Assembly (NCBI GenBank): GCA_964016885.1
Contig: OZ024744.1
Location: 70,432,001 to 70,496,000 of the forward strand
Direction: 5' to 3'
From: Eledone cirrhosa
Lineage: Eukaryota
DNA length: 64,000 nucleotides
Of the stretch, positions 3,707-62,741 are shown piece after piece. The notes below the pieces were generated by a model. It was not told where the DNA came from. It saw nothing but the letters and a program-made list of their open reading frames with translations, and made no database searches. Both the position numbers and the translations under genes were made by a program. Within the stretch, counting starts at the first letter, position 1. Every line of letters starts with the position of its first letter.

Positions 3707-3875
3707 ATACGATATTAAATAAATGGAAACTATATTTATAAAACCATATTTGGTTTTATAAATATAGTTTCCATTTATTTAATATCGTATATCTACTCCA
3801 AAAAATTTGTCGAGTGCTTTATATCAGTTATAAAATATTTACTTGTTGTATCCCAACAATTTTAAATAGAACTTT

Positions 3876-3880
<5 letters not shown>
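3707..3880 (+). mobile_element. Fold-back PLE-tail-like insert (family G)
   Basis: Perfect ~40-bp inverted repeat (3707-3790) plus a tail similar to 27114-27160 and 27686-27760; inside (TA)n. Confidence 0.7.
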
Positions 3881-5018: not shown

Positions 5019-5183
5019 GGAAAAAGCTCGACGGCTATTTCTGGTGTCCAGAAATAGCCGTCGAAACGGCTTGAGCTCTGCCGTCGGGGTCATACTTTTT
5101 CTTATTTCCCACTCTACTACCCTAAGTATTGAGTACTCTGGTGCGTTATGGTCCATCTGGTTCCTTACCACAATTCCTTTGTT
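5019..5183 (+). mobile_element. Fold-back half-hammerhead element (family B)
   Basis: Hairpin GACGGCTATTTCTGG/CCAGAAATAGCCGTC, then GAAACGGC..GCCGTC and a conserved tail; same family at 31441, 31655, 32325, 34910, 61307. Confidence 0.85.
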
Positions 5184-5565: not shown

Positions 5566-5723
5566 GAAAAAAGGAAAAGAATGACTTCACTTGTAGTTCT
5601 AAACAATTTGATTTAATATATAATATTATAAAATTAAATCAAATTGCTTAGAACTACAAGTGAAGTCATTCTTTTCTCTTTTTTCAAATATACCTAACTG
5701 TACCAAGGATTTCACACATTTTT

Positions 5724-5725
<2 letters not shown>
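5566..5725 (+). mobile_element. Fold-back insert in (TA)n (family C)
   Basis: ~45-bp inverted arms AGAATGACTTCACTTGTAGTTCTAA.../...TTAGAACTACAAGTGAAGTCATTCT; opposite-orientation copy at 43630-43780. Confidence 0.75.
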
Positions 5726-10374: not shown

Positions 10375-10696
10375 ACATAACGCGCTACTGCAGTTTCCGT
10401 CGACCAAATTTCATTGACATGGCTATCACGCAACGCGAATAAACCAAGAATCGCGTGGTTGCGAACTGATCTTTGTAAATGTACAGCCATGCCTACCTAT
10501 ATCTCATCTATCTATCATTATATCGATGTGTGTGTGTGGAAACTTAGTGAAGATACGCTTTACTGAAACATGGTGATCACATACATAATAAGAATATATA
10601 TAAACATATTTATACACTACACAATTATAAATATTAAGTTCTGCCTCTTCTGTGGGCTCCTACGATCACGATATAAGGACCCAATACACAACCATT

Positions 10697-10885
10697 GGCG
10701 GTGAATTGCCAGTATCGGTAGACTGTTGGATGCCATGCTTTCCAGCATAGTTACATCCCTTTACGGTCTCAATTCAAATCTCGTCGAGGTTAACTTTGCC
10801 TTTCATCCTTACGGGGTCGATAAAATAAAGTACCAGTAATGTACTGGGATAATTGCTGGCCTTGTGCCAAAAGTAGAAACAATTA
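10697..10885 (+). mobile_element. tRNA-derived SINE (dominant family of the window)
   Basis: Degenerate A/B boxes, central GCCTTTCATCCTTACGGGGTCGATAAAATAAAGTACCAG, 3' GGCCTTGTGCCAAAAGTAGAAACAATT. Confidence 0.9.
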
Positions 10886-10933
10886 TATTACATACATATG
10901 TAAATATATATACATACGCTCATATGTGTGTGT

Positions 10934-11459: not shown

Positions 11460-12020
11460 CTCACATACACACACCTAGCCTCCGGACTCCACACGCCCCC
11501 TCACCTCCACCTCCTCGGACCCCTCTCCATCCACACGCACGCACACACCGACTTACACCCCACCCCATGTACACACCGGTTTCCCCAATACCTGAACATG
11601 GAACCTAGTTATTCCCCCAACTCTCACATTCACATCCACACACACACACACACCACCTTCAGCCCTTCCCACTCGGACCCCCATCTCCCTCTCCCCTCTC
11701 CACCACCTCCCTCCACCCACTACCACCCCTACACGCCTCACACCCTTTCACCACTTGTTTCATTTTAATTTTATTCACCCTCTAAAAAATTATTTTTTCC
11801 TCCCTTTTTCTCCCCTCCCCCCTTTTTAATGTCTTTCCACCACTCCCCCCAACACCCTCGGAACTCTTTTCCTGCCCACCTTTCTCCTGATGAAGGGCTT
11901 ATTCCTGAAACGTCATCCCCCACCCTCCACTCTCAAGCGTGAAACTAATATTAACATTTTGTGCTGCCTCTTCGCTTCCACGTTGTTGTTTTTTTTTGTT
12001 TACTCTTTCAACTATACTAT
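11460..12020 (+). mobile_element. PLE 3' remnant with a loop-less hammerhead core
   Basis: C-rich region followed by CTGATGA-AGG-gcttatt-CCT-GAAA-CGTC at 11887-11914; stem I not intact. Confidence 0.55.
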
Positions 12021-25671: not shown

Positions 25672-26877
25672 GGGGTGTGATTGGTGTTATGGACTCTACC
25701 AACCAAACACCCAAGAACAAAGAGTAAAGAGAGTAAAGAGCAAAAGTAGGGGACGATAAGTCTAATTTTGGTGCGGGAGGGTGGGGTGTTGGTCCTTGTT
25801 TACTAGCTGCGGTCATATTCATTCCCGGGGGTCGGGTGGTTAGCTGAACCATAGATGGGGTGGCGTCGATAGTATGGTGCAGGGGGTGCGCAGAGGCTAC
25901 ACAAACACAAAGGGCGTAGAATACATATATACATATAGCGGAGGAGAAGGTACATGAGGTAATTAGAAATGGAAAAAGAGTAATAATAATAATCTATAAT
26001 TAATAGTGTATAATAAGGCATGGGGAAGATTACACTATAATAAGGTATAAAGGTAAGAATAAGGTAAAATATAAAGGAAGGTAAAAGTGGAAATAATAAT
26101 AAAGATAAAAAATATATAGAGAATATATAAGGAAATATAAGCGAATATTTGGAGGGGAAAACACAATGTAAAAAAACCGATTTTTTTCAAACAATAATAA
26201 AAATATAATAATTATGGGGGGAGAAAACAGGATAGAGAAATATGATCAAGTGTGATTCGTTGAGAGAATATAAGATGATAACAGTTATGTCCAGTTTATA
26301 CATCTTAATAATAAATAATAAACAATAAACAATATGTGTATCAGAGTTGCAGAACCTTCAATTGACTTACGGGTTCAAGCCACGTGGCATGGTCCATTGT
26401 TTATCTGTGCGGTCATGTGCGTTTGTTTTTGACACCACAGCAGATGCACAAGTTTGTAAATTCCAATGCAGGTAGAAATCAATTTTTGCTCACCCGGACA
26501 TTGACCGAGGATCCAATATTCCTAGTTCAATATGTGTGATTATCGGTCATCCAGCTATGTTGTTGGTGGTTGGATTCAAATCTATTCGCCCAAACGTTGA
26601 ACTTTGGTGTCGATAGGACATCAACGAAGCAGGGTGAGATCGCATCTGTGGTACAAAACGGTACGCAAGGAAATTCTTCGTCTTCGTTTCATCCGGGTCC
26701 AGTAGTCACGTGCAAGAACCGCTACGTAGTAATTGTGGGGTTAATCAGTCAAGTCAGCAACTGACCGAAATATATATATATATATGAACAATGAGTTATA
26801 TGGTTTGTTGATTGTTCAACAAAGTTAATTTTACAACAGATTAGAAGCACTCTACACTTTTTTTCTGGAGTATCATT

Positions 26878-27157
26878 AATATTAACAATATTAATAAATA
26901 GAGAATAAATATCAAAACCATATTTATTTTATTATACGTATTTCAAGGGCACTAATATTTAAGTTCGCTTTCGTCAAATAAAATATAATATTTGGTGTTA
27001 AGATAGTGACATACTTCGTGTATCTTAGTATCTTAGCACCAAATATTATATTTTGTCTGACGAAAGCGTACTTAAATGTTAGTACCCTTGAAATACGTAT
27101 AATAAAATAAATATGGTTTTGTAAAGATATTTTCCATTTATTAATATTGTTAATATT
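26878..27157. mobile_element. ~280-bp fold-back element carrying a hammerhead in each arm (family G)
   Basis: Long inverted arms around an apex near 27020. Confidence 0.85.
27049..27109 (+). ncRNA. Minimal type I hammerhead ribozyme motif
   Basis: TATTTTGT-CTGACGA-AAGcGTACT..AGTACcCTT-GAAA-T-ACGT-ATA-ATAAAATA; palindromic loop III; the mirror arm has C3>T. Confidence 0.8.
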
Positions 27158-27233
27158 ATATATGTATATTGTTGAAAGAAACAAATAAAGGTGATAATTT
27201 TTACACAGATATTAGGTTCACATATATATAACG

Positions 27234-28955: not shown

Positions 28956-29054
28956 GTTTAACCACTTACCGGATGCACAAAGCGTTTGTCATGTGATGGT
29001 CTTATTTTATTATATATGTACGAGTGTGTCTGTCTATAATTATATACATATATA

Positions 29055-29470
29055 TACATGTGTGAATGGGATGAGCGGTAGATCATTCAATTATATCATA
29101 TGTTGTGGAAAATATTTCCCCAATAAAGCCCAAATATTGCTGCCACCTACTTTCCAGTGTGTCCATGTGGGAGCCCCTACATGGACACACTGGAAGAGGA
29201 AGACCAAGGTTAACGTATGTTGATGCCCTAAGGACAGACACTGGTCTGTTGGAGACGCAGGACATGGCAGCGATAATGAGGGACAGAGACCGCTGGAGAG
29301 AACTCGTCCATGGATCTCGGGAATTTTACCCGCCCTAGATAGATAGATATTATGAGTTATTGGGTGATTTTAAAAGTAGGTGGCAGCAATATTTGGGCTT
29401 TATTGGTGAAATATTTTCCACAACATATGATATAATTGAATGATCTACCGCTCATCCCATACACACATGT
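29055..29470. mobile_element. ~95-bp inverted-repeat element containing a LINE 3' fragment (29152-29348, +)
   Basis: Arms about 29055-29151 and 29373-29470; insert encodes WEPLHGHTGRGRPRLTYVDALRTDTG..DRDRWRELV and ends in (AGAT)n. Confidence 0.8.
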
Positions 29471-29960
29471 ATATATGTTACATACATATATGTGTGTGTA
29501 AGTATATATACATATATACAGAATTATGGTAGTTTTAAACTAGTAAGACCCATTATTCAACAGAATACTCGATACTTGAGATAGTAGAGTGTAAATAGTT
29601 GGGGTCCGACGGCTGAGCTCTTGGCGTTTCGACAGCAAATAGTTACATATATATATATATATTTATATATATATATATATGGAGTGAGTATGTGTGTGTA
29701 TCCATAGCACATTTATATATACACACACACACATGCACATGCACACACAGATATTTACACATACGATTTCGTCCATGTACACGCACACTGTATAACATAT
29801 AGTCAGCAACTTCAAACGAGACATCAAAAAGATTTTGAGAATGTGTTCACATTCTCTGAAGGACAAAACCTAGTGTTCTTTAAAACATATTGCAGCGAAA
29901 GATTGTGAACTGATTTCATGTATAATTACATATATGCTATGTTATGTATGTATATGAGTG

Positions 29961-30487: not shown

Positions 30488-30488
<1 letters not shown>

Positions 30489-30635
30489 AATATCCGTTTG
30501 TGGTTGACGGCTGAGAGTACTCAATACCGAAGTAGAGTTTTAATGTTGTTTTTATTAAGGCTAAATAGTGAGTGTCTTGTTACTCTGGAGTTTCGCCTGA
30601 TTAACAAGACTCACTATTTAGTCTTAATAAAAGTG
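30488..30635 (-). mobile_element. Fold-back half-hammerhead element (family F)
   Basis: Arms 30550-30582 and 30601-30631; minus strand GAAA-CTC-ca-GAG-TA; relative at 33541-33625. Confidence 0.7.
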
Positions 30636-30640
30636 AATAA

Positions 30641-30725
<85 letters not shown>

Positions 30726-30908: not shown

Positions 30909-30940
30909 GTGTGCGTGTGTGTGTGTGCGTGTGTGTGGCT

Positions 30941-31045
30941 ATGTGAGGCTCGGATTAAATCAGTGGTAAATAAGGTACTCAATACATGATGATTTCCTTC
31001 GAATGAAACAGTTATAGTCATGTAGAAGCCATTTCTATATTAAAT
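30941..31045 (+). mobile_element. Family D-related insert with hammerhead core
   Basis: TGATGA-tTTC-cttc-GAAt-GAAACAGTTATAGTCATGTAGAA at 30987-31027, preceded by an inverted tail with GTACTCAATAC. Confidence 0.65.
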
Positions 31046-31056
31046 TATATATATAC

Positions 31057-31139
<83 letters not shown>

Positions 31140-31195: not shown

Positions 31196-31395
31196 TAAAA
31201 TAACAGTTTAAAGTTTAAGCAAAGAATCACTGCTTTCACCCTTAACGGGATCTTCTGAAACTAAAAACACCGATTCTTTGCTTAAACTTTAATCTGATAT
31301 TTTAATAAATATTTGCTCAACGGTTCTTATACATTTGATATATATTTATCCTTATCGAGCCCTCTTTGGATTTTAGTCTTCAAATTTATTATTAT

Positions 31396-31400
<5 letters not shown>
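31195..31400. mobile_element. Fold-back element, family E, with CAGAAGA-core hammerhead-like motif (31212-31262, -)
   Basis: Same sequence at 35224-35295 and 58584-58750. Confidence 0.75.
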
Positions 31401-31440
<40 letters not shown>

Positions 31441-31442
<2 letters not shown>

Positions 31443-31621
31443 ACGAATGAATTGTGGTAAGAAACCAGATGGACCATAACGCACCAGAGTAGTCTATACT
31501 TAGGGTAATAGAGTGGGTAATAGGAAAAAGTTTAACCCCGACGGCAGAGCTCAAGCCGTTTCGACGGCTATTTCTGGCCTCCAGAAACGGTTTGAGCTCT
31601 GCCGTTGGGGTTAAACTTTTT

Positions 31622-31660
<39 letters not shown>

Positions 31661-31758
31661 AAGGAATTGTGGTAAGGAACCAGATGGACCATAACGCACC
31701 AGAGTACTCAATACTTAGGGTAGTAGAGTGGGAAATAGGAAAAAAAGTATGACCCCAA
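31441..31758 (-). mobile_element. Two family B copies (31441-31625, 31655-31758)
   Basis: Conserved tail GTGGTAAG(A/G)AACCAGATGGACCATAACGCACCAGAGTA; the first copy has a fold-back arm. Confidence 0.85.
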
Positions 31759-31938
31759 CGGGGTTGATTTAATCGACTTTCGCCTTCCAGCAAAATTGTT
31801 GGCCTTGTTCCTAAATCGGAAGCCATTATTAAACACATTAGTTTGGTTGCCAAACTAAATCAATAATTCAAATTTCACTTCAAATATGTTTGTGCGTGTG
31901 CATGCGTCTGCGCGCGTGTGTGTGTGTGTGTGTGTGTG

Positions 31939-32277: not shown

Positions 32278-32324
<47 letters not shown>

Positions 32325-32327
<3 letters not shown>

Positions 32328-32525
32328 CGAAACGAAGGAAGTGTGGTAATGAACCCGGTGGACCATTACTTACCAGAGTACTCGATACTATGGGTAGTAG
32401 AGTGGGTAATAGGAAAAGAGTCAGGACCCCGACGGCTGAGCTCCGGCCGTTTCGACAGCTATTTCTGAACTCAGAAATAGCTGTCGAAACGGCCAGAGCT
32501 CAGCCGTCGGGGTCCTGACTCTTTT

Positions 32526-32528
<3 letters not shown>
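32325..32528 (-). mobile_element. Family B fold-back element
   Basis: ~58-bp near-perfect arms around apex AACT (~32467). Confidence 0.88.
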
Positions 32529-32564
<36 letters not shown>

Positions 32565-33278: not shown

Positions 33279-33472
33279 TAATATAGATGAGATTCTACAG
33301 GACTAGAACTGTTTCATTCTTTAGAAATCATCAGAGATTCCTGATGATTTCTAAAGAATAAAACAGTTCTAGTCCTGTAGAATCTCATCTATATTAAAAC
33401 TTCTATACTCTGCTATGTATTGAGTACCTTACTTACTGTGGTTACCTCCGATTCAACCCGGAATAACTTACC
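33279..33472 (+). mobile_element. Fold-back element, family D, with complete type I hammerhead topology (33334-33386)
   Basis: GAGATTC-CTGATGA-tTTC-taaa-GAAt-AAAA-CAG-ttctagtc-CTG-TA-GAATCTC; G12 is mutated on the + arm but intact (GAAA) on the mirror arm. Confidence 0.8.
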
Positions 33473-34810: not shown

Positions 34811-34909
34811 CTTCATAGGTTGAAAATCTGCAAAGTGAAACGTGCGTTCTCGAAAATGGTTTATTAACTTTTCTGGAGCTAACCTATATATATATATAAA
34901 TAAGAATAT

Positions 34910-35110
34910 GAAAAGAGTCAGGACCCCGATGACTGAGCTCTGGCCGCTTCGACAGCTAGATCCAAACAGTTCGGATCTAGCGGTCGAAACGGCCGGAGCT
35001 CAGCCGTCGGGGTCCTGACTCTTTTCCTATTACCCACTCTACTACCCCAAGTATTGAGTACTCTGGTGCGTTATGGTCCACCTGGTATCTAACCACACCC
35101 TCTTTGCTTT
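34910..35110 (+). mobile_element. Family B fold-back element
   Basis: Arms around apex GCTAGATCC-aaacagttc-GGATCTAGC, plus the conserved tail. Confidence 0.85.
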
Positions 35111-35117
35111 TTATATG

Positions 35118-35182
<65 letters not shown>

Positions 35183-35294
35183 TAATAATATTTACTTCTG
35201 CGTCCATAAATTGATTTCTTTTCAGTTTCAGAAGAACCCGTTAAGGGTGAAAGCACCGATTCTTTGCTTAAACTTTAATCTGTTATTATAATAA

Positions 35295-35810: not shown

Positions 35811-36142
35811 ATATATTTGTCTGTCATATTGAATACTCAACAACATATATGGGGATATTTTCTTTCCACAAAATCAAATTTCACTTTGTTTCGATGTGGT
35901 ATTCAAATCTTCCTAACTTGATTAGGTAGAATACTAATGAATATTTTTTATCTGGGTATATACTAATCAATTCATCCATCAATTTCTTTGTCAATCTACG
36001 TATCTATCTATTTATATATATATATCTGTTCGTTGATGTAACTATTACTGTAACAACATCATTAACAAACAATTGATTATCCTTTATTAACTATCCATCT
36101 AATATTTTTTTCTCTCTTTCTTCCTCTCTTTCTTCCATACAG

Positions 36143-36993
36143 ATCAGACATTTGGAGAAGTTAACCAACTCGGAGGAGTGTTCGTTAACGGCAGGCCCCT
36201 ACCAAATGCAATCAGAATGCGAATTGTAGAGCTAGCACAGCTGGGAGTCAGACCATGCGACATAAGTCGACAACTGCGAGTCTCACACGGATGTGTGAGT
36301 AAAATACTCGCTCGATATAACGAAACGGGATCAATATTACCAGGAGCTATTGGTGGAAGTAAACCAAGAGTAACAACACCTAATGTCGTCCGACATATCA
36401 AAATTTACAAGGAAAAAGATCCAGGGATATTCGCCTGGGAGATCCGAGATAAACTCCTAGCAGATGGAATTTGTGATAAATTCAGCGTCCCGTCAGTGAG
36501 TTCTATCAGTAGAATTCTTAGAAACAAAATTGGAAGTAACAGCAGTAATAATATTAATAATAGTAATAATAACAGCACTTCTGTCCATTCACCTAATCCG
36601 CAATTTGAGCATAAAAGTGTAGCCCCTTCTACGCCGGCTACTGCTCTATATAATCATCAATTTTATCCCTACACATGCCCAGGCGGTCAAGGAATTTCTA
36701 CAATTCCTGGGGTTCCAGCGCCTCAAATTTCTTCACAGGCTGCGACCCATCATAACCATATGAATGTTAATATTAAGCAGAATTCTATGTCGTCTGTTAC
36801 CCCTTGCATGATGAGAGCTTGGCCCTCTTCTCATTCTGTGAGTGATATTTTAGGGATAGGTGTACGTCAACCTTTATCAATGGCCCAAACAGGTCCTTCT
36901 GCGCATATGGAGACGGCCCTTGGACAAAATTATAATTATTATGGAGTAAATATAAAAGCCACGGCGGTGTCACCAATGTTTCTACAAAGTTGA
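36143..36993 (+). CDS. Pax9: Pax1/9 paired-box transcription factor, main coding exon (start codon lies in an upstream exon)
   Basis: Polypyrimidine tract plus CAG acceptor at 36140-36142, phase 1; reads [74 protein letters not shown]...SISRILRNK; octapeptide [12 protein letters not shown]; no homeodomain; TGA at 36991-36993. Subfamily Pax1/9 (single invertebrate co-ortholog). Confidence 0.96.
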
Positions 36994-43036: not shown

Positions 43037-43993
43037 GTATAAATGAAATTACATTAACAAAAATAGAAAGGTCAAGAGATAATTTGTTTTGGTTCGAGTG
43101 TTTCTATTGGAAAGTTGTCGCAGAAACAATAAGTGGTAATATGCAGTAAGGCGAGAGGCCTGCAGTATGGTATGGCATAGTACGGTCCCGTAACTCCCGA
43201 TAGTATCGTAGAGACGCCATAATAATATACGGCGTTTCTTGGGCATTTTTACACCCTAGTGGTGACCACCCCTATCCAAGTTTGGATATTGAGAAGGAGA
43301 GACAGTGTTAGAAGGGAGGAAGCGAAAAAAAGGATACAGAGGAAGAAACAACCGCGCTATTGAACTGGTATATTTTTTATCGACAAAAAGGGTGGAAGGT
43401 AAAATTGACCAAAACAGGATTTCAACTCAGAGTTTAGAGTCCGGCAAAGAATACTACAAACCATTCTATCCGACGTTCTAACGACTCTGCCAATTCGCCA
43501 CCTATGAGAGACCTGTAGTAGTGTCTGATCCAACCCCTTCTAGTTTTGGTGTTCTCCGGGTCCTAATATATATATTATACACTGACATACCCACGCACAT
43601 ACACACACAAGTATTCATATATATATATATTTTGGAAAATGTGTGAAATCCTGGGGGTACAGTTAGGTATATTTTTTAAAAAAGGAAAAGAATGACTTCC
43701 CTTGTAGTTCTCAACAGTTTAATTTAATTTTATAATTTAATTTAATTTTATAATATACTTTTACAATTTGGTTTTACATATATATATATAAATATAAATA
43801 TAATTTCAGCGAGATCGAATTTCGGTGGTGGCCCTAAACAAAGCGGAACGCAAATTTCAAGATATGCGGTAAGCGTTCAATGGACTAAAAGAAGACCAGA
43901 GCAATAAACATAGGTTATAGAGGCCAAACAAACTGAAAACGGCGGTCAAGAATCCATCAGCCACCGAAGCAAGCTAAATAGGTCAAACGAAAG

Positions 43994-44073
<80 letters not shown>

Positions 44074-44202
44074 CTTTCGTTTGACCTATTTAGCTTGCTA
44101 TATATATATAGTGGTAGAACACTGGAAGGTAATATCCGTAGTGGTAGAGCACTCAGTCCAAGGGACGAGTTAGATAGAAGTGGTTACACAACAGTTAGTT
44201 CA

Positions 44203-44252
44203 CCATACCGAGAACAATTGTTTCACCTTAGCGGATCCTCAGCTCGTAATGG
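44203..44252 (-). ncRNA. Minimal type I hammerhead in the PLE 3' pseudo-LTR (mirror copy 46277-46326, +)
   Basis: CGAG-CTGAGGA-tCC-gctaa-GGt-GAAA-C-AATT-GTT-CTCG; palindromic loop III. Confidence 0.85.
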
Positions 44253-44411
44253 ACATGGTTATACGGAACAGGAAGGACAACAGTACGAACGCGCATGCGC
44301 AGAAACGATCACTTCACACAGGCAATACTAAATTGCGTGCGAGAGGTGTAAGGGAGATGACTGCGAAAGTCCGAAAGTTTCTAGTTGATAAGAAAATTAG
44401 GATGTTGTAAT

Positions 44412-46085
44412 TCAATCCGGAGCTTTGTAGTTATGTAAGAGGTGTTTCCAGACGTGTGGACAGCGTGTGATGAATTCATTTCTCGTGTTTAGGCAATCAC
44501 TATTGCGTAATCTCTTTAGAATATTTATTCGTTCATCAATACATAGCACACACGACAGATTGCCCCTTGCGTATGGCTTGGACTTAGTAATGGCTTTCCA
44601 TTGAATGGAGTAGTCTATACTTGAGTCCTTTAGGGACCATACGTGGCTCGCGATTTTCGTGGATGAACGTCTGTCCGGGTACCTAAAGGTCGACTGGTGG
44701 TTCAGGAAGCGTTCCTTAAATCGGCCCTCCGCCATACCCACATAGGATTTGACCTCCTGTGGTTGATTTGGTCGGTTGGAAGTGACCACAACTTCATAAA
44801 CTACAGCGGGTGTGTTGCATTGCTGTTGAAGGGGACAAGCTTCGGGCTTACGGCAAGAGCACCCTGGTGGGGTGTTGCTCTTAGGGCTGTTGGTGATGTG
44901 GGCCTTCATGTTCTTAGCGCAGGAGTATACTAGTTTTACTTTGTGTCGGTTAAAGATGAAGCGGTATTTATGACCTATGGGAAAGTGTCTATCTAAGAGG
45001 GCTAGAAATGTTTTGCCTACATTGGTTTTAACGTTGAGCGAGAAGGGAGGGGAGAACCAGATAGTTTGTCTATTGCTACGCTTTCTTTTCTTATTGCTAT
45101 TGTTGTTAGTGGGAGAGTAAGTGATAGGTTGCGAGAAGCCGCTGTTAGCTAACACCGTGTTATAGTAGGGTGCCGCCCTGTCAAAGATAGCCTTATTAGA
45201 GGAGAGGTTTGAGATTCTAGTACTGATATTATTTACGAAGTTTCTAAAAACAGTGGGAGGGTGGCATGAGTCCTTGTGAATGTAATTGAGTTTTTCGTTA
45301 AGCTTATGGAAGTGTCTGTAGGTGTGTGTGCGAAGGTCTAAATTAATGTCTAAGAAATATACGCTAGAGAGGTTGGTAGCTACTGTTATCGTAAGGCCTA
45401 ACTCATTGAAGGTAGAAGCTAAGTCTTTTTTAAACCGGTCGAGGTCGTGACCACTTTTATGGCTCGATAAGGTCAGTCCATCGTCGCGGTATATTCCCGT
45501 GTGGAAGTCCGGGAATCTAACACGTAATATGTCTAAGATAAAAAGGCCAACCAGGTCGCATACGTCAGCACTGTCAAACGATCCGATGGAGACATCAAAT
45601 AGGTCTGAAGTTGTAGACTTCTTTGCCCAGGCTACTCCGTTGTTGAAGAGGAGGGTTTTCCGGCAGTGAGCGATGATTTCCCTGTCTAAACCATCGACGG
45701 TAGTGTAAGTGGTAGCAAAGTCCAACGCTTTGTTTAACAAAGAGATCGGCGGGTAAAAATCAACAATGTCAAACTGTGTGAACTTCGCTTTTTGGGATTT
45801 GAAGGAGTTAAACCACTTAATTATGGAGTCGCTGTTCTCCCACTGGGACAGGTTGGACTTGGTCCTAATGGTCTTAACTATGTTTCTAAGTATGGCCTTA
45901 CTGACTCGTCCCATATCTGTGCGTGCCGGGTTTATTAGTCTACATGTGGGGTTAGAAGTAAAGTCTACATTGTGATCATTCAGGGTGAGGAACGTCTCCC
46001 GCTTAGCTAGAGATTGTAGCTGCTTATCTACCTTAAAGTCGGCGGCAAGTTCTTTGGCTTCTGTATTAATGTCGTGGTAGGCCAT
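44412..46085 (-). CDS. PLE reverse transcriptase + GIY-YIG endonuclease (N-truncated, frame open)
   Basis: FTQFDIVDFYP, GIYRDDGL, FLDINLDL, IWFSPPFS, CSCRKPEACPL..VVYE..SYVGMAEGRFKERFLNH, CVLCIDE..LNTRNE. Confidence 0.92.
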   Translation of the reverse strand: MAYHDINTEAKELAADFKVDKQLQSLAKRETFLTLNDHNVDFTSNPTCRLINPARTDMGRVSKAILRNIVKTIRTKSNLSQWENSDSIIKWFNSFKSQKAKFTQFDIVDFYPPISLLNKALDFATTYTTVDGLDREIIAHCRKTLLFNNGVAWAKKSTTSDLFDVSIGSFDSADVCDLVGLFILDILRVRFPDFHTGIYRDDGLTLSSHKSGHDLDRFKKDLASTFNELGLTITVATNLSSVYFLDINLDLRTHTYRHFHKLNEKLNYIHKDSCHPPTVFRNFVNNISTRISNLSSNKAIFDRAAPYYNTVLANSGFSQPITYSPTNNNSNKKRKRSNRQTIWFSPPFSLNVKTNVGKTFLALLDRHFPIGHKYRFIFNRHKVKLVYSCAKNMKAHITNSPKSNTPPGCSCRKPEACPLQQQCNTPAVVYEVVVTSNRPNQPQEVKSYVGMAEGRFKERFLNHQSTFRYPDRRSSTKIASHVWSLKDSSIDYSIQWKAITKSKPYARGNLSCVLCIDERINILKRLRNSDCLNTRNEFITRCPHVWKHLLHNYKAPD

Positions 46086-46390
46086 AGGGTTAGCTTTCTT
46101 ATATTTGGAAGTAATAGCGTTATGGGCCAGGTGGCGGAAAGTGGTGTTGTTGACTTCGGACTTTCGCAGTTATCTCCCTTACACCTCTCGCACGCAATTT
46201 AGTATTGCCTGTGTGAAGTGATCGTTTCTGCGCATGCGCGTTCGTACGGTTGACTTCCTGTTCCGTATAACCATGTCCATTACGAGCTGAGGATCCGCTA
46301 AGGTGAAACAATTGTTCTCGGTATGGTGAACTAAGTGTTGTGTAACCACTTATATATATACATATATATATATATATTTGGCATATACCA

Positions 46391-47837
46391 TCTAAACTAT
46401 AATAAAGGAAGGTCTGCGGGATTGCGTACGGTTTTTTTTGTTTTTTTATCCCGTTTGTAAAATAAGTTTGATTACTTTGAATAAATAATTGTTTCTATTT
46501 TTGGCACAAGGCCAGCAATAAACCAGTGCATTACTGGTACTTTATTTTGTTGACGCCGCAAGGATGAAAGGCAAAGTTAACCTCGGCGGGATTTGAACTC
46601 AGATCATAAATGGACGTAACTATGCTTCAAAGCATGGTGTCCGACTCTCTACCGATACTGCCAATCCACCGCCCTATTATTTTTGTTTACGAAATTGAGT
46701 ACATAAATTATGTAATATTCATTCATTACTTTGAATAAATAATGAATGAATATTACATAATTTATCTACTCAATTTCGTAAACATAAAAAATTTCGTAAA
46801 AATAAATAATTTCAAATTGACTTCTTTTCAAAGTTACGCTTCCGGTATATCGTCGCCACCCCCCCCCCCCCCTCATTTCAACTACCATATATATATAGAA
46901 AGAGGGAGTATGATTGTGCACATACATACATCTATATGTATGAGGATATAAATATAATCGCGCAAACACAAACTTATAAAAATACACTCTCACGGACATA
47001 ATTCACACAAATACACATACTTTCACACAAATATACATACATTGACACATACTTTCACACAAACATACATACTTTCACACAAATATACATACATTCACAT
47101 ATATACTTTCACACAAACATACATACATTCACACATACTTTCACACAATATTTCACACATATACATTTACACAAACATACATACATTCACACATTTACAT
47201 TTACACAAACATACATACATTCATACATATACATTTACACAAACACACACATACAGTCATGATAGCGTTCGGTTTAATTGGAAATGGGAGAGTAAAACAA
47301 GTATAACGTTTTATTTATTTATTAACTCTGTTCTTCTTAAACTCATCTAAACTATAATAAAGTAAGGAGCGCGGGACTGCGTACGGTTTATAATTTTTTG
47401 TCTCATTAGTAAAATAAGTTGGATTACTTTGAATAAATAATTAATGAATATTACATAATTCATCTACTAAATTTCGAGGCTGTTGATTAAATATATTTTG
47501 TTTATTTAAAGATTCACTTCTTTAAAATTTCTGAAATGTCAACACTTCCGGTTGGCCATCGCTTAAATAAACATACTAATTTTCTGTCACTAATTTTCTC
47601 CTAACGCAGTTTATATTTAATATCGTCATTTTTAATGTATCATGGATTACGTTACTGATTAAATTAGACAGTGTAACGCAGTCTTCGTTCAATTTCTATG
47701 TATTATATATTGTCAATTACGATTTTATTTGATGTATCATATCTACATGTATATATATATATATACCTGCGTATAATATCAATATGCGCACTACACATGC
47801 TAGTAGAAAACCACCCGAGGGGCGGTTTTTCTGCTAG
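46391..47837 (+). mobile_element. Non-autonomous Helitron-like element with two 5' ends (46391, 47346) and a nested SINE (46486-46675)
   Basis: A|TCTAAACTATAATAAAG start; 3' hairpin AGAAAACCACCC-gag-GGGCGGTTTTTCT then CTAG|T; relatives at 57296-58205 (-) and 63099-63842 (+). Confidence 0.7.
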
Positions 47838-58556: not shown

Positions 58557-58670
58557 GTATGTATCATTTTTTATTCTTTTCTCAGTTTCAGAAGATCCCG
58601 TAAAAGGGTGAAAGCATCGATTCTTTGCTTAAACTTTAATCTGTACTAATAATAAATAGTTGCTCTACAG

Positions 58671-61203: not shown

Positions 61204-61562
<359 letters not shown>

Positions 61563-62364: not shown

Positions 62365-62441
<77 letters not shown>

Positions 62442-62443
<2 letters not shown>

Positions 62444-62520
62444 TTCCATTACCCAAGCAAGGTTTCTCGAAGTCAAACGATTCTAACAGAAACGTTTGAT
62501 TTCGTTCATCAGATGAAATA
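62442..62520 (-). ncRNA. Complete type I hammerhead with long stem II
   Basis: TATTTCAT-CTGATGA-aCGAAaTCAAACG..CGTTTGAcTTCGa-GAAA-CC-ttgcttg-GG-TA-ATGGAATA; adjoining hairpin 62513-62546. Confidence 0.82.
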
Positions 62521-62666
62521 TCTTTATCATAATAAAGATATTTCATAATGGAATATTACGTAATGAAATAATTATATTGTATGTTTTATTATGTAATTGA
62601 ATAGCTCTGTATTATACATAGAGCACTCTTTTTTTCCTTTACCTTTTCTACGGAAATACTTAACAC

Positions 62667-62741
<75 letters not shown>

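Follow-up and report, generated by a model that had tools for sequence, protein, structure and literature searches.

Hairpin-shaped inserts in (AT)n microsatellites of Eledone cirrhosa, likely end pieces of a Hydra-type Penelope-like element

How does a repeat come to consist of two head-to-head copies of one short sequence? The question is raised by family B, a very common hairpin-shaped insert of about 200 nt that is found in (AT)n microsatellites of Eledone cirrhosa. A sequence-only reading of the locus had proposed that a cDNA snaps back at stem II of a hammerhead ribozyme, primes its own copying and is joined to the target by TAT microhomology. The family is considered here in a stretch of 64,000 nucleotides, referred to as the window (GenBank assembly GCA_964016885.1, contig OZ024744.1, positions 70,432,001 to 70,496,000, forward strand), together with public reads and with elements of other animals. 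The DNA of the window is of animal origin, with LINE fragments and abundant (AT)n. A paired-box (PAX) exon, presumably of the Pax1/9 type, lies at 36103-36993. The commonest repeat is a SINE-like family of about 200 nt (10688-10906 and about 25 more places, often nested), a piece of which interrupts a family B copy at 31761, and at 29035-29490 a 119-bp inverted repeat flanks unrelated sequence of higher GC content and a further small palindrome.

In the window, family B is present in seven copies, five of them two-armed, and the copy statistics below come from these seven and from one read test:

5019-5182, plus strand: copy whose short arm has large deletions
29520-29650, minus strand: decayed copy, short arm nearly gone
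31439-31623, minus strand: copy whose short arm has lost 11 nt between two GAAA (31.5k copy)
31656-31761, minus strand: copy truncated by another repeat, without a second arm
32327-32527: copy with two arms (32.4k copy)
34899-35117, plus strand: copy with an apex stem unlike those of the other copies and a 1-nt loop (35k copy)
61309-61500, minus strand: copy used as query of the read test (61.4k copy)

An adjoining inverted, 5'-truncated copy is present in 5/7. The (AT)n flanks lie on both sides in five copies and on one side in two, and a target site duplication is unreadable inside them. There is no ORF. The hairpin has a folding z of -20.8, with none of 200 shuffles equally good, and the tail alone has no significant fold (z 0.27 and -0.55). 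The arm starts given earlier, at 32412, 61389 and 31523, are correct. The parts of the 32.4k copy, in which the RNA sense is the minus strand, are as follows:

32280-32326, 47 nt: left (AT)n target
32327-32408, minus strand, 82 nt (77-86 nt in the family): one-sided "tail", the inferred RNA 3' end, as the term is used in PMC8557442 and PMC3846280
32378-32403, minus strand: ACTC..GAGTAC motif, the family B version of GCTC..GAGCAC in the Hydra clade, A-T replacing G-C as the outer pair
32409-32470, minus strand: long arm, from TAT at the tail boundary to the fixed 5' end
32431-32453, minus strand: putative type I hammerhead, 3' half only (GAAA, a 17-nt helix III that is nearly palindromic, and TC), without CTGANGA
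32469-32471: apex, the long-arm end and one extra base; the short arm resumes 3 nt short of that end
32471-32530, plus strand: short arm, inverted and tail-less, 59/60 bases complementary to the long arm, ending in TTCCTAT
32528-32562, 35 nt: right (AT)n target

The claim that the arms match within a copy and differ between copies proved correct. Long and short arm differ at 1/60 positions in the 32.4k copy, 1/57 in the 61.4k copy, 2/45 in the 31.5k copy and 7/62 in the 35k copy (the fifth two-armed copy has lost most of its short arm), as against 4-13 differences at 60-62 sites, plus up to two gaps, between the long arms of any two copies. At the sites that separate two long arms, the short arm agrees with its own long arm 113 times, with the other copy 3 times and with neither 11 times, a tally over 20 ordered copy pairs that are non-independent. 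The comparison of intra-copy with inter-copy identity, which had been suggested as a check, bears the observation out. The arms had also been called copy-specific. This is right in that each short arm tracks its own long arm, but the variants themselves are common to many copies and therefore subfamily-specific. In the read test, four public runs were aligned to the long arm of the 61.4k copy, which yielded 23,603 of 12.5 million raw reads (run X13), 17,008 contigs (X1), 10 (X4) and 4 (X7). The letters that separate the window arms are common variants, most of them in 65 to more than 120 contigs (among the variant rows listed, 40 of 129). Since each is shared by dozens to over a hundred contigs, they mark subfamilies and not single copies. 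At least 8/12 of the differences in the 32.4k tail also occur among the read-test variant rows (best 40 of 129). Two changes present in both arms of the 31.5k copy are absent from the rows listed (40 of 129), which fits a mirroring of rare variants.

Not every mismatch is private to one copy. The 32.4k and 35k copies have one short-arm mismatch in common, a C-to-T change at a CpG. The two linked variants have equal depth in the contigs (182,590 vs 177,058), so that the T is not fixed in the short arms of that subfamily, and CpG sites are widely decayed in the reads. The shared mismatch was at one time taken as proof that the hairpin is inherited as a unit; this was dropped, CpG decay being the likely cause instead. 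The odd base falls in the short arm for 10/12 arm mismatches (p = 0.04; one copy accounts for six, and the assignment was by eye), and the large deletions and the apex trimming are on the short side in 4/4 cases (p = 0.125). The data support the derivation of both arms of a copy from one template, and they support the conclusion that the hairpin was not simply inherited and then left to decay.

What lies at the apex? As the sequence-only reading had it, CTGANGA is absent: YTGANRA occurs on neither strand in 7/7 copies, and with CTGANGA missing the half-hammerhead is predicted to be inactive. GAAA, a helix III of 4-5 bp and then TC are present in five copies. This element occupies the place of the hammerhead in related elements, and it is probably a genuine hammerhead half. 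The window holds 16 such half-hammerhead patterns, 9 of them outside family B. The further claim that the apex lies at hammerhead stem II is not supported. The apex is 17-18 nt before GAAA, so that a loop II at this point would require a core spacer of about 35 nt, beyond all of 42 measured Hydra spacers (8-31 nt). The 5' strands of the putative helices II and I are the fold-back itself, and the assignment is circular because the helix at that place is made by the fold-back; the preferred fold of the long arm alone is a small 6-bp hairpin around CGAA. Stem II at the apex is neither shown nor favoured.

An unfolded parent with CTGANGA, which that reading also called for, was sought in the read test, the Hydra loci and the contig scans, and none was found. 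Exact-pattern scans with family B gave 0 matches in metagenome, genome and viral contigs, and a blastn search of 88 Hydra loci gave no parent and only two 14-nt matches (E 0.34). The main unfolded continuation in run X13 was considered as a parent core and treated as flank, with no CTGANGA, helix I or helix II among the 30 letters listed. Among the Rfam matches listed (best 150 of 257, and 76/76 in a second listing) there is no hammerhead and no tRNA; those listed are of microRNA-type hairpins only, under the gathering score. A tRNA-like head was likewise sought with ARAGORN, which found 0 genes in the window, and inspection by eye against consensus boxes gave no Pol III promoter at the fixed 5' end.

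The apex is not random, as the suggested mapping of apex and end positions brought out: the long arm ends at one column in 5/5 two-armed copies, followed by T or A, and the short arm picks up again 0, 2 or 3 nt before that end. The three apex stems quoted earlier are accurate as sequences, but the third belongs to the 35k copy and not to the 31.5k copy, in which 11 nt of the short-arm apex stem are lost. Apex loops are of 1-2 nt with 0-1 bp of pairing; a 1-nt loop is found in the 35k copy and in one contig of run X7. Unfolded copies of the 35k type also halt at the apex column, with unrelated sequence beyond, in 114 contigs that agree poorly past the column and in 1594 reads that are probably mostly from one locus. 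The column may be fixed because the apex is inherited, because transcripts start there or because of a strong stop.

The other end of the short arm is equally sharp. It stops at TTCCTAT in 4/5 two-armed copies, as described before, and the 35k copy is decayed there. A direct run into (AT)n at 61386 is seen in 3581/23,603 raw reads and in 106/17,008 contigs; the short-arm end is fixed genome-wide. The reads that run into (AT)n have a median loose length of 96, and therefore start at the apex-stem AATT, at which 7225 molecules end. Short arms would then be about as common as long arms in the subfamily concerned, with the proviso that reads may be duplicates. Opposite-strand reads (at least 270) are unusable as an apex map, since most are cut at the apex-stem AATT and the overruns are unaligned.

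Why should the arm end here? An answer is suggested by 88 Hydra loci of other animals, retrieved from metagenome and genome contigs. CTGANGA..GAAA is present in 55/69 of those with at least 150 nt past the ORF (a match in L001, which lies in coding sequence, was excluded). Among the 42 distinct hammerhead-bearing 3' ends, meaning those with 110 nt past GAAA, 27 have GCTC..GAGCRC 44-78 nt past GAAA, where 0.3 would be expected from shuffles. A second copy of the motif follows 57-71 nt later in 10/24 loci with room for it. A (TA)4 run lies ahead of the motif in 13 loci: seven are true ends, four are brief internal runs with the motif after them, and two are doubtful. The true (TA)n ends are 40-49 nt past GAAA, in seven ORF-bearing loci (L007, L020, L032, L063, L064, L073 and L082). 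In six loci a (TA) run follows the motif, in five of them at 51-68 nt after the motif start and in one at 29. Hydra insertions end just 5' of either motif copy. The inverted copy in L060 stops 9 nt before the second motif, and L082 has two fold-back stubs with different apex positions.

Family B repeats this arrangement on a small scale. ACTC..GAGTAC lies 44-46 nt past GAAA in 5/7 copies, with a compensatory change of the outer pair; the short arm ends 39-41 nt past GAAA and 5 nt before the motif, and the long arm with its tail ends 72-82 nt past the motif start. The second motif is absent from the family B copies. With a profile HMM of 28 Hydra 3' ends, 5/7 copies match at the motif and on the right strand, at non-significant E values of 4-11 and at most 2.9 bits, compared with 7.1 bits for a reversed-window control. 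The RCTC..GAGYRC motif likely marks both priming sites. The sequence-only reading had taken TAT as the microhomology by which the fold-back strand is joined to its target; TAT is instead the standard tail-less 3' end of Hydra elements, the seven ORF-bearing loci included. Since ORF-bearing copies end at the same site, it is likely a priming site rather than the final joint. An inverted partner was seen in 0/7 tail-less ORF-bearing loci, the contigs being short, so that a partner could lie outside them; that such copies end at the tail boundary on their own again makes it likely that this boundary primes cDNA.

Two features of the Hydra loci may be mentioned in passing. Many of the hammerheads (L013, L018, L031, L087 and others) have a helix II closed by a T-T or A-A-like mismatch or by a GTG..CAC pair, and a palindromic helix III of 7-9 nt, compared with 14-17 nt in family B and two window stubs. 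Nine loci (L080-L088) with Hydra-type retroelements are filed as bacterial genomes, partly sponge- or invertebrate-associated, and are likely contamination from animal hosts.

The window also holds a larger relative:

44111-46358, minus strand: 5'-truncated Hydra-clade Penelope-like element of a different family from B, with an ORF at 44412-46169

Its open frame of 585 codons has CxCX5C, CxxC and CxH motifs, and an alignment of 36 homologs (35 of 120 listed matches) shows RWK and DKT in its consensus. On the basis of these motifs, compared with section 11 of PMC8557442, it was placed in the Hydra clade; Pfam gave no family for the ORF. Inverted terminal copies at 44174-44375 and 46155-46355 each carry a full hammerhead core, and the tail is on one side only. 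Family B has the layout of this element: an inverted 5'-truncated copy, a one-sided tail and a (TA)n target. The 44k element itself lies inside a 28-bp inverted repeat around (AT)n (43968-43995 and 44072-44099). In several other fold-backs of this layout in the window the apex is placed differently: immediately ahead of a whole core (33281-33394), far upstream of the core (26877-27158) or with no core at all (3711-3786). The tail of family B is similar to the tails of two window stubs that have a hammerhead (1/300 and 0/300 shuffles as good), shows a weak likeness to a third (6/300), and has no significant likeness to five others, the 44k element among them (96/300).

Fold-backs and hammerhead remains are frequent in the window at large. 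At least eight further fold-back inserts of various families, most of them beside (AT)n, lie at 33281-33472, 26786-27158, 3710-3878, 30488-30645, 62440-62670, 31196-31398, 5566-5725 and 46676-46792; several have hammerhead parts and the same tail motif, with varied apex positions. In a stub at 30925-31058 an inverted hammerhead arm is joined directly to a tail, the long-arm stem having apparently been deleted, and similar joints occur in the read test. In another family (31197-31303, 35216-35294 and 58574-58655) CAGAAGA replaces CTGANGA before the helix and GAAA, possibly as a core variant or a dead core. More single hammerhead-like cores are found at 11887, 25661, 40802, 41333 and 47972, the last (minus strand) with all three helices.

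How, then, might such inserts be made? Family B likely consists of end pieces left by a Hydra-type Penelope-like element, a tidy variant of a known pattern and no new kind of element. That they were made by twin priming of such an element is our best explanation, held at about even confidence. A Hydra-type reverse transcriptase, probably a dimer, would cut both strands of the microsatellite. One cDNA would start at the tail end and another at the internal UAU that immediately precedes the RCTC..GAGYRC hairpin, and both would extend to one point on the RNA 5' side, 17-18 nt past GAAA. The head-to-head join would probably be a template jump from the finished long cDNA, with one added base, to the 3' end of the short cDNA, the latter being 0-3 nt shorter at the join. 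Two priming sites and a head-to-head join would together account for the two ends, the narrow loops and the agreement of the arms. Layout, within-copy arm identity, the fixed short-arm end, the motif and its position, and both end positions in the Hydra loci are seen directly; the enzyme, the order of events and the template jump are what we infer from them. In vitro, a Poseidon protein cleaves both strands and extends them, and it begins synthesis at two internal positions that delimit the tail (PMC11167929); template jumping by R2 requires an added base (PMC8857657).

The snap-back originally proposed is possible, if doubtful. A tail-primed cDNA would reach the apex, fold or switch onto itself, copy back to TAT and join the target (in a variant, a folded source copy would supply a self-templating apex and make a hammerhead parent unnecessary). 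Its account of the fixed apex is straightforward, and it was right to derive the arms from one template, since they are alike within copies down to the two rare changes mirrored in the 31.5k copy. The short-side deletions and apex trimming (4/4, p = 0.125) and the excess of odd bases in the short arm point the same way, and self-priming at palindromic inverted Penelope junctions was proposed in 2013 (PMC3846280, relevant passages). However, loops of 1-2 nt have 0-1 bp of apex pairing, and a 1-nt loop leaves a strand too little room to fold back; unfolded copies also stop at the apex column; TAT is the primary 3' end of ORF-bearing Hydra copies; and nothing would make a copy-back strand halt exactly at the tail boundary. 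It is the priming-site reading of TAT and the 1-nt loops that lead us to prefer twin priming.

Inheritance of the hairpin as a unit is less probable still. The folded copy would be transcribed and reinserted whole, with base pairing between its (AU)n flanks and the target, and occasional template switching or DNA conversion would homogenise the arms. Folded copies are abundant and could serve as sources, since roughly one in two reads anchored at the apex AATT enters the short-arm end (3581 vs 7225 molecules), and one mismatch is common to two copies. That mismatch, however, is the CpG C-to-T change that is not fixed (182,590 vs 177,058), apex registers vary among copies, and all subfamily changes are mirrored. 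A palindrome formed at the DNA level, as in MITE-like or fold-back elements, without retrotransposition and with GAAA-helix-TC arising by chance, is highly improbable, since the inverted repeat is at one end only, with 77-86 nt of unpaired tail at the other, since the tail resembles those of two hammerhead-bearing stubs (1/300 and 0/300 shuffles), and since the motif, its spacing and both end positions agree with Hydra elements. What speaks for it is the lack of an Rfam hammerhead among the matches listed, the 9/16 half-hammerhead patterns outside family B and the ability of the long arm by itself to form another hairpin, of 6 bp around CGAA.

Twin priming has difficulties of its own. Only five two-armed copies can be read whole and the source element of family B was not found; neither the profile HMM nor the tail of the 44k element links family B significantly to Hydra ends; the 32.4k and 35k copies have a short-arm mismatch in common; the excess of odd bases in the short arm (10/12) is not predicted; the second motif, wanted for a start at the tail, is missing from the family B copies; and the 1-nt loop could come from a folded source. 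A tentative idea, itself rather doubtful, is that family B is a self-perpetuating non-autonomous hairpin. Transcripts of folded copies would end, for the enzyme, at their own apex, and each round would rebuild the short arm from the long one without a hammerhead parent; the repeated RCTC..GAGYRC would act as a ruler that seats two reverse transcriptase subunits about 60 nt apart and so sets the length of the tail.

Much of this is already in print: the inverted copy, the one-sided tail, self-priming at palindromic junctions and opposite-strand hammerhead pairs. Complex insertions of EN+ Penelope-like elements, as treated in portions of PMC3846280 and PMC8557442, have the same head-to-head inverted copy, a tail at one end and a palindrome at the junction. 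Family B differs in having no ORF, a unit of about 135 nt, one fixed apex column in all copies read and a tail of 77-86 nt, compared with 30-40 bp in the complex insertions. The Hydra clade, described in section 11 of PMC8557442, has a (TA)n target and a hammerhead near the 3' end. Family B shares with it the (TA)n target, and with the Hydra loci retrieved here the RCTC..GAGYRC motif and both end positions, but it lacks a protein and all of the hammerhead except the 3' half, whereas the clade has a single ORF of reverse transcriptase and C-terminal GIY-YIG with the CxCX5C linker; the 44k neighbour (44412-46169) agrees with this description. Poseidon PAc in vitro resembles the twin-priming model in its two tail-bounding start sites, in cutting and extending both strands and in not needing hammerhead cleavage; it differs in belonging to another clade, in its AC-rich start loop and in that no fold-back product appears in the sections of PMC11167929 concerned. 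Minimal hammerheads that occur in pairs on opposite strands, 100-700 bp apart (PMC4209133), are likewise short inverted Penelope fragments around a hammerhead, but both of their cores are whole, and family B is without CTGANGA. Non-LTR retrozymes (bioRxiv 10.64898/2026.07.22.740005, in part) are likewise short non-coding relatives of Penelope terminal repeats; they form tandem arrays with a whole type I hammerhead per unit, whereas family B is dispersed, inverted and has half a core. MITEs have inverted repeats at both termini, and family B at one end. Among the papers listed in literature searches there was none on a fixed-apex half-hammerhead family, a repeated Hydra motif or tails of 51-94 nt. 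The motif and its repeat are absent from the passages of PMC8557442 consulted, the supplements of which (Hydra sequences, hammerheads) may show it, and a term search of an octopus repeat annotation (PMC13282606) gave no passage with "hairpin" or "hammerhead". The pattern is real and mostly known, and the additions are the high-copy fixed ends and the motif that likely marks both priming sites.

What do these stubs mean for Penelope-like elements and their host? The origin of the inverted repeats and tails is stated as an open question in the part of PMC8557442 that deals with them. High-copy stubs with fixed ends let junction counts separate twin priming from snap-back, and the repeated Hydra motif is a concrete target for mutation in vitro. 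In the host, perfect hairpins of 56-62 bp, at about one per 10 kb of the window, would be a large source of double-stranded RNA if transcribed, and palindromic repeats are strong ADAR targets (PMC5625713, in part). If family B does perpetuate itself and the repeated motif does act as a ruler, the thousands of stubs would be a direct record of Penelope twin priming.
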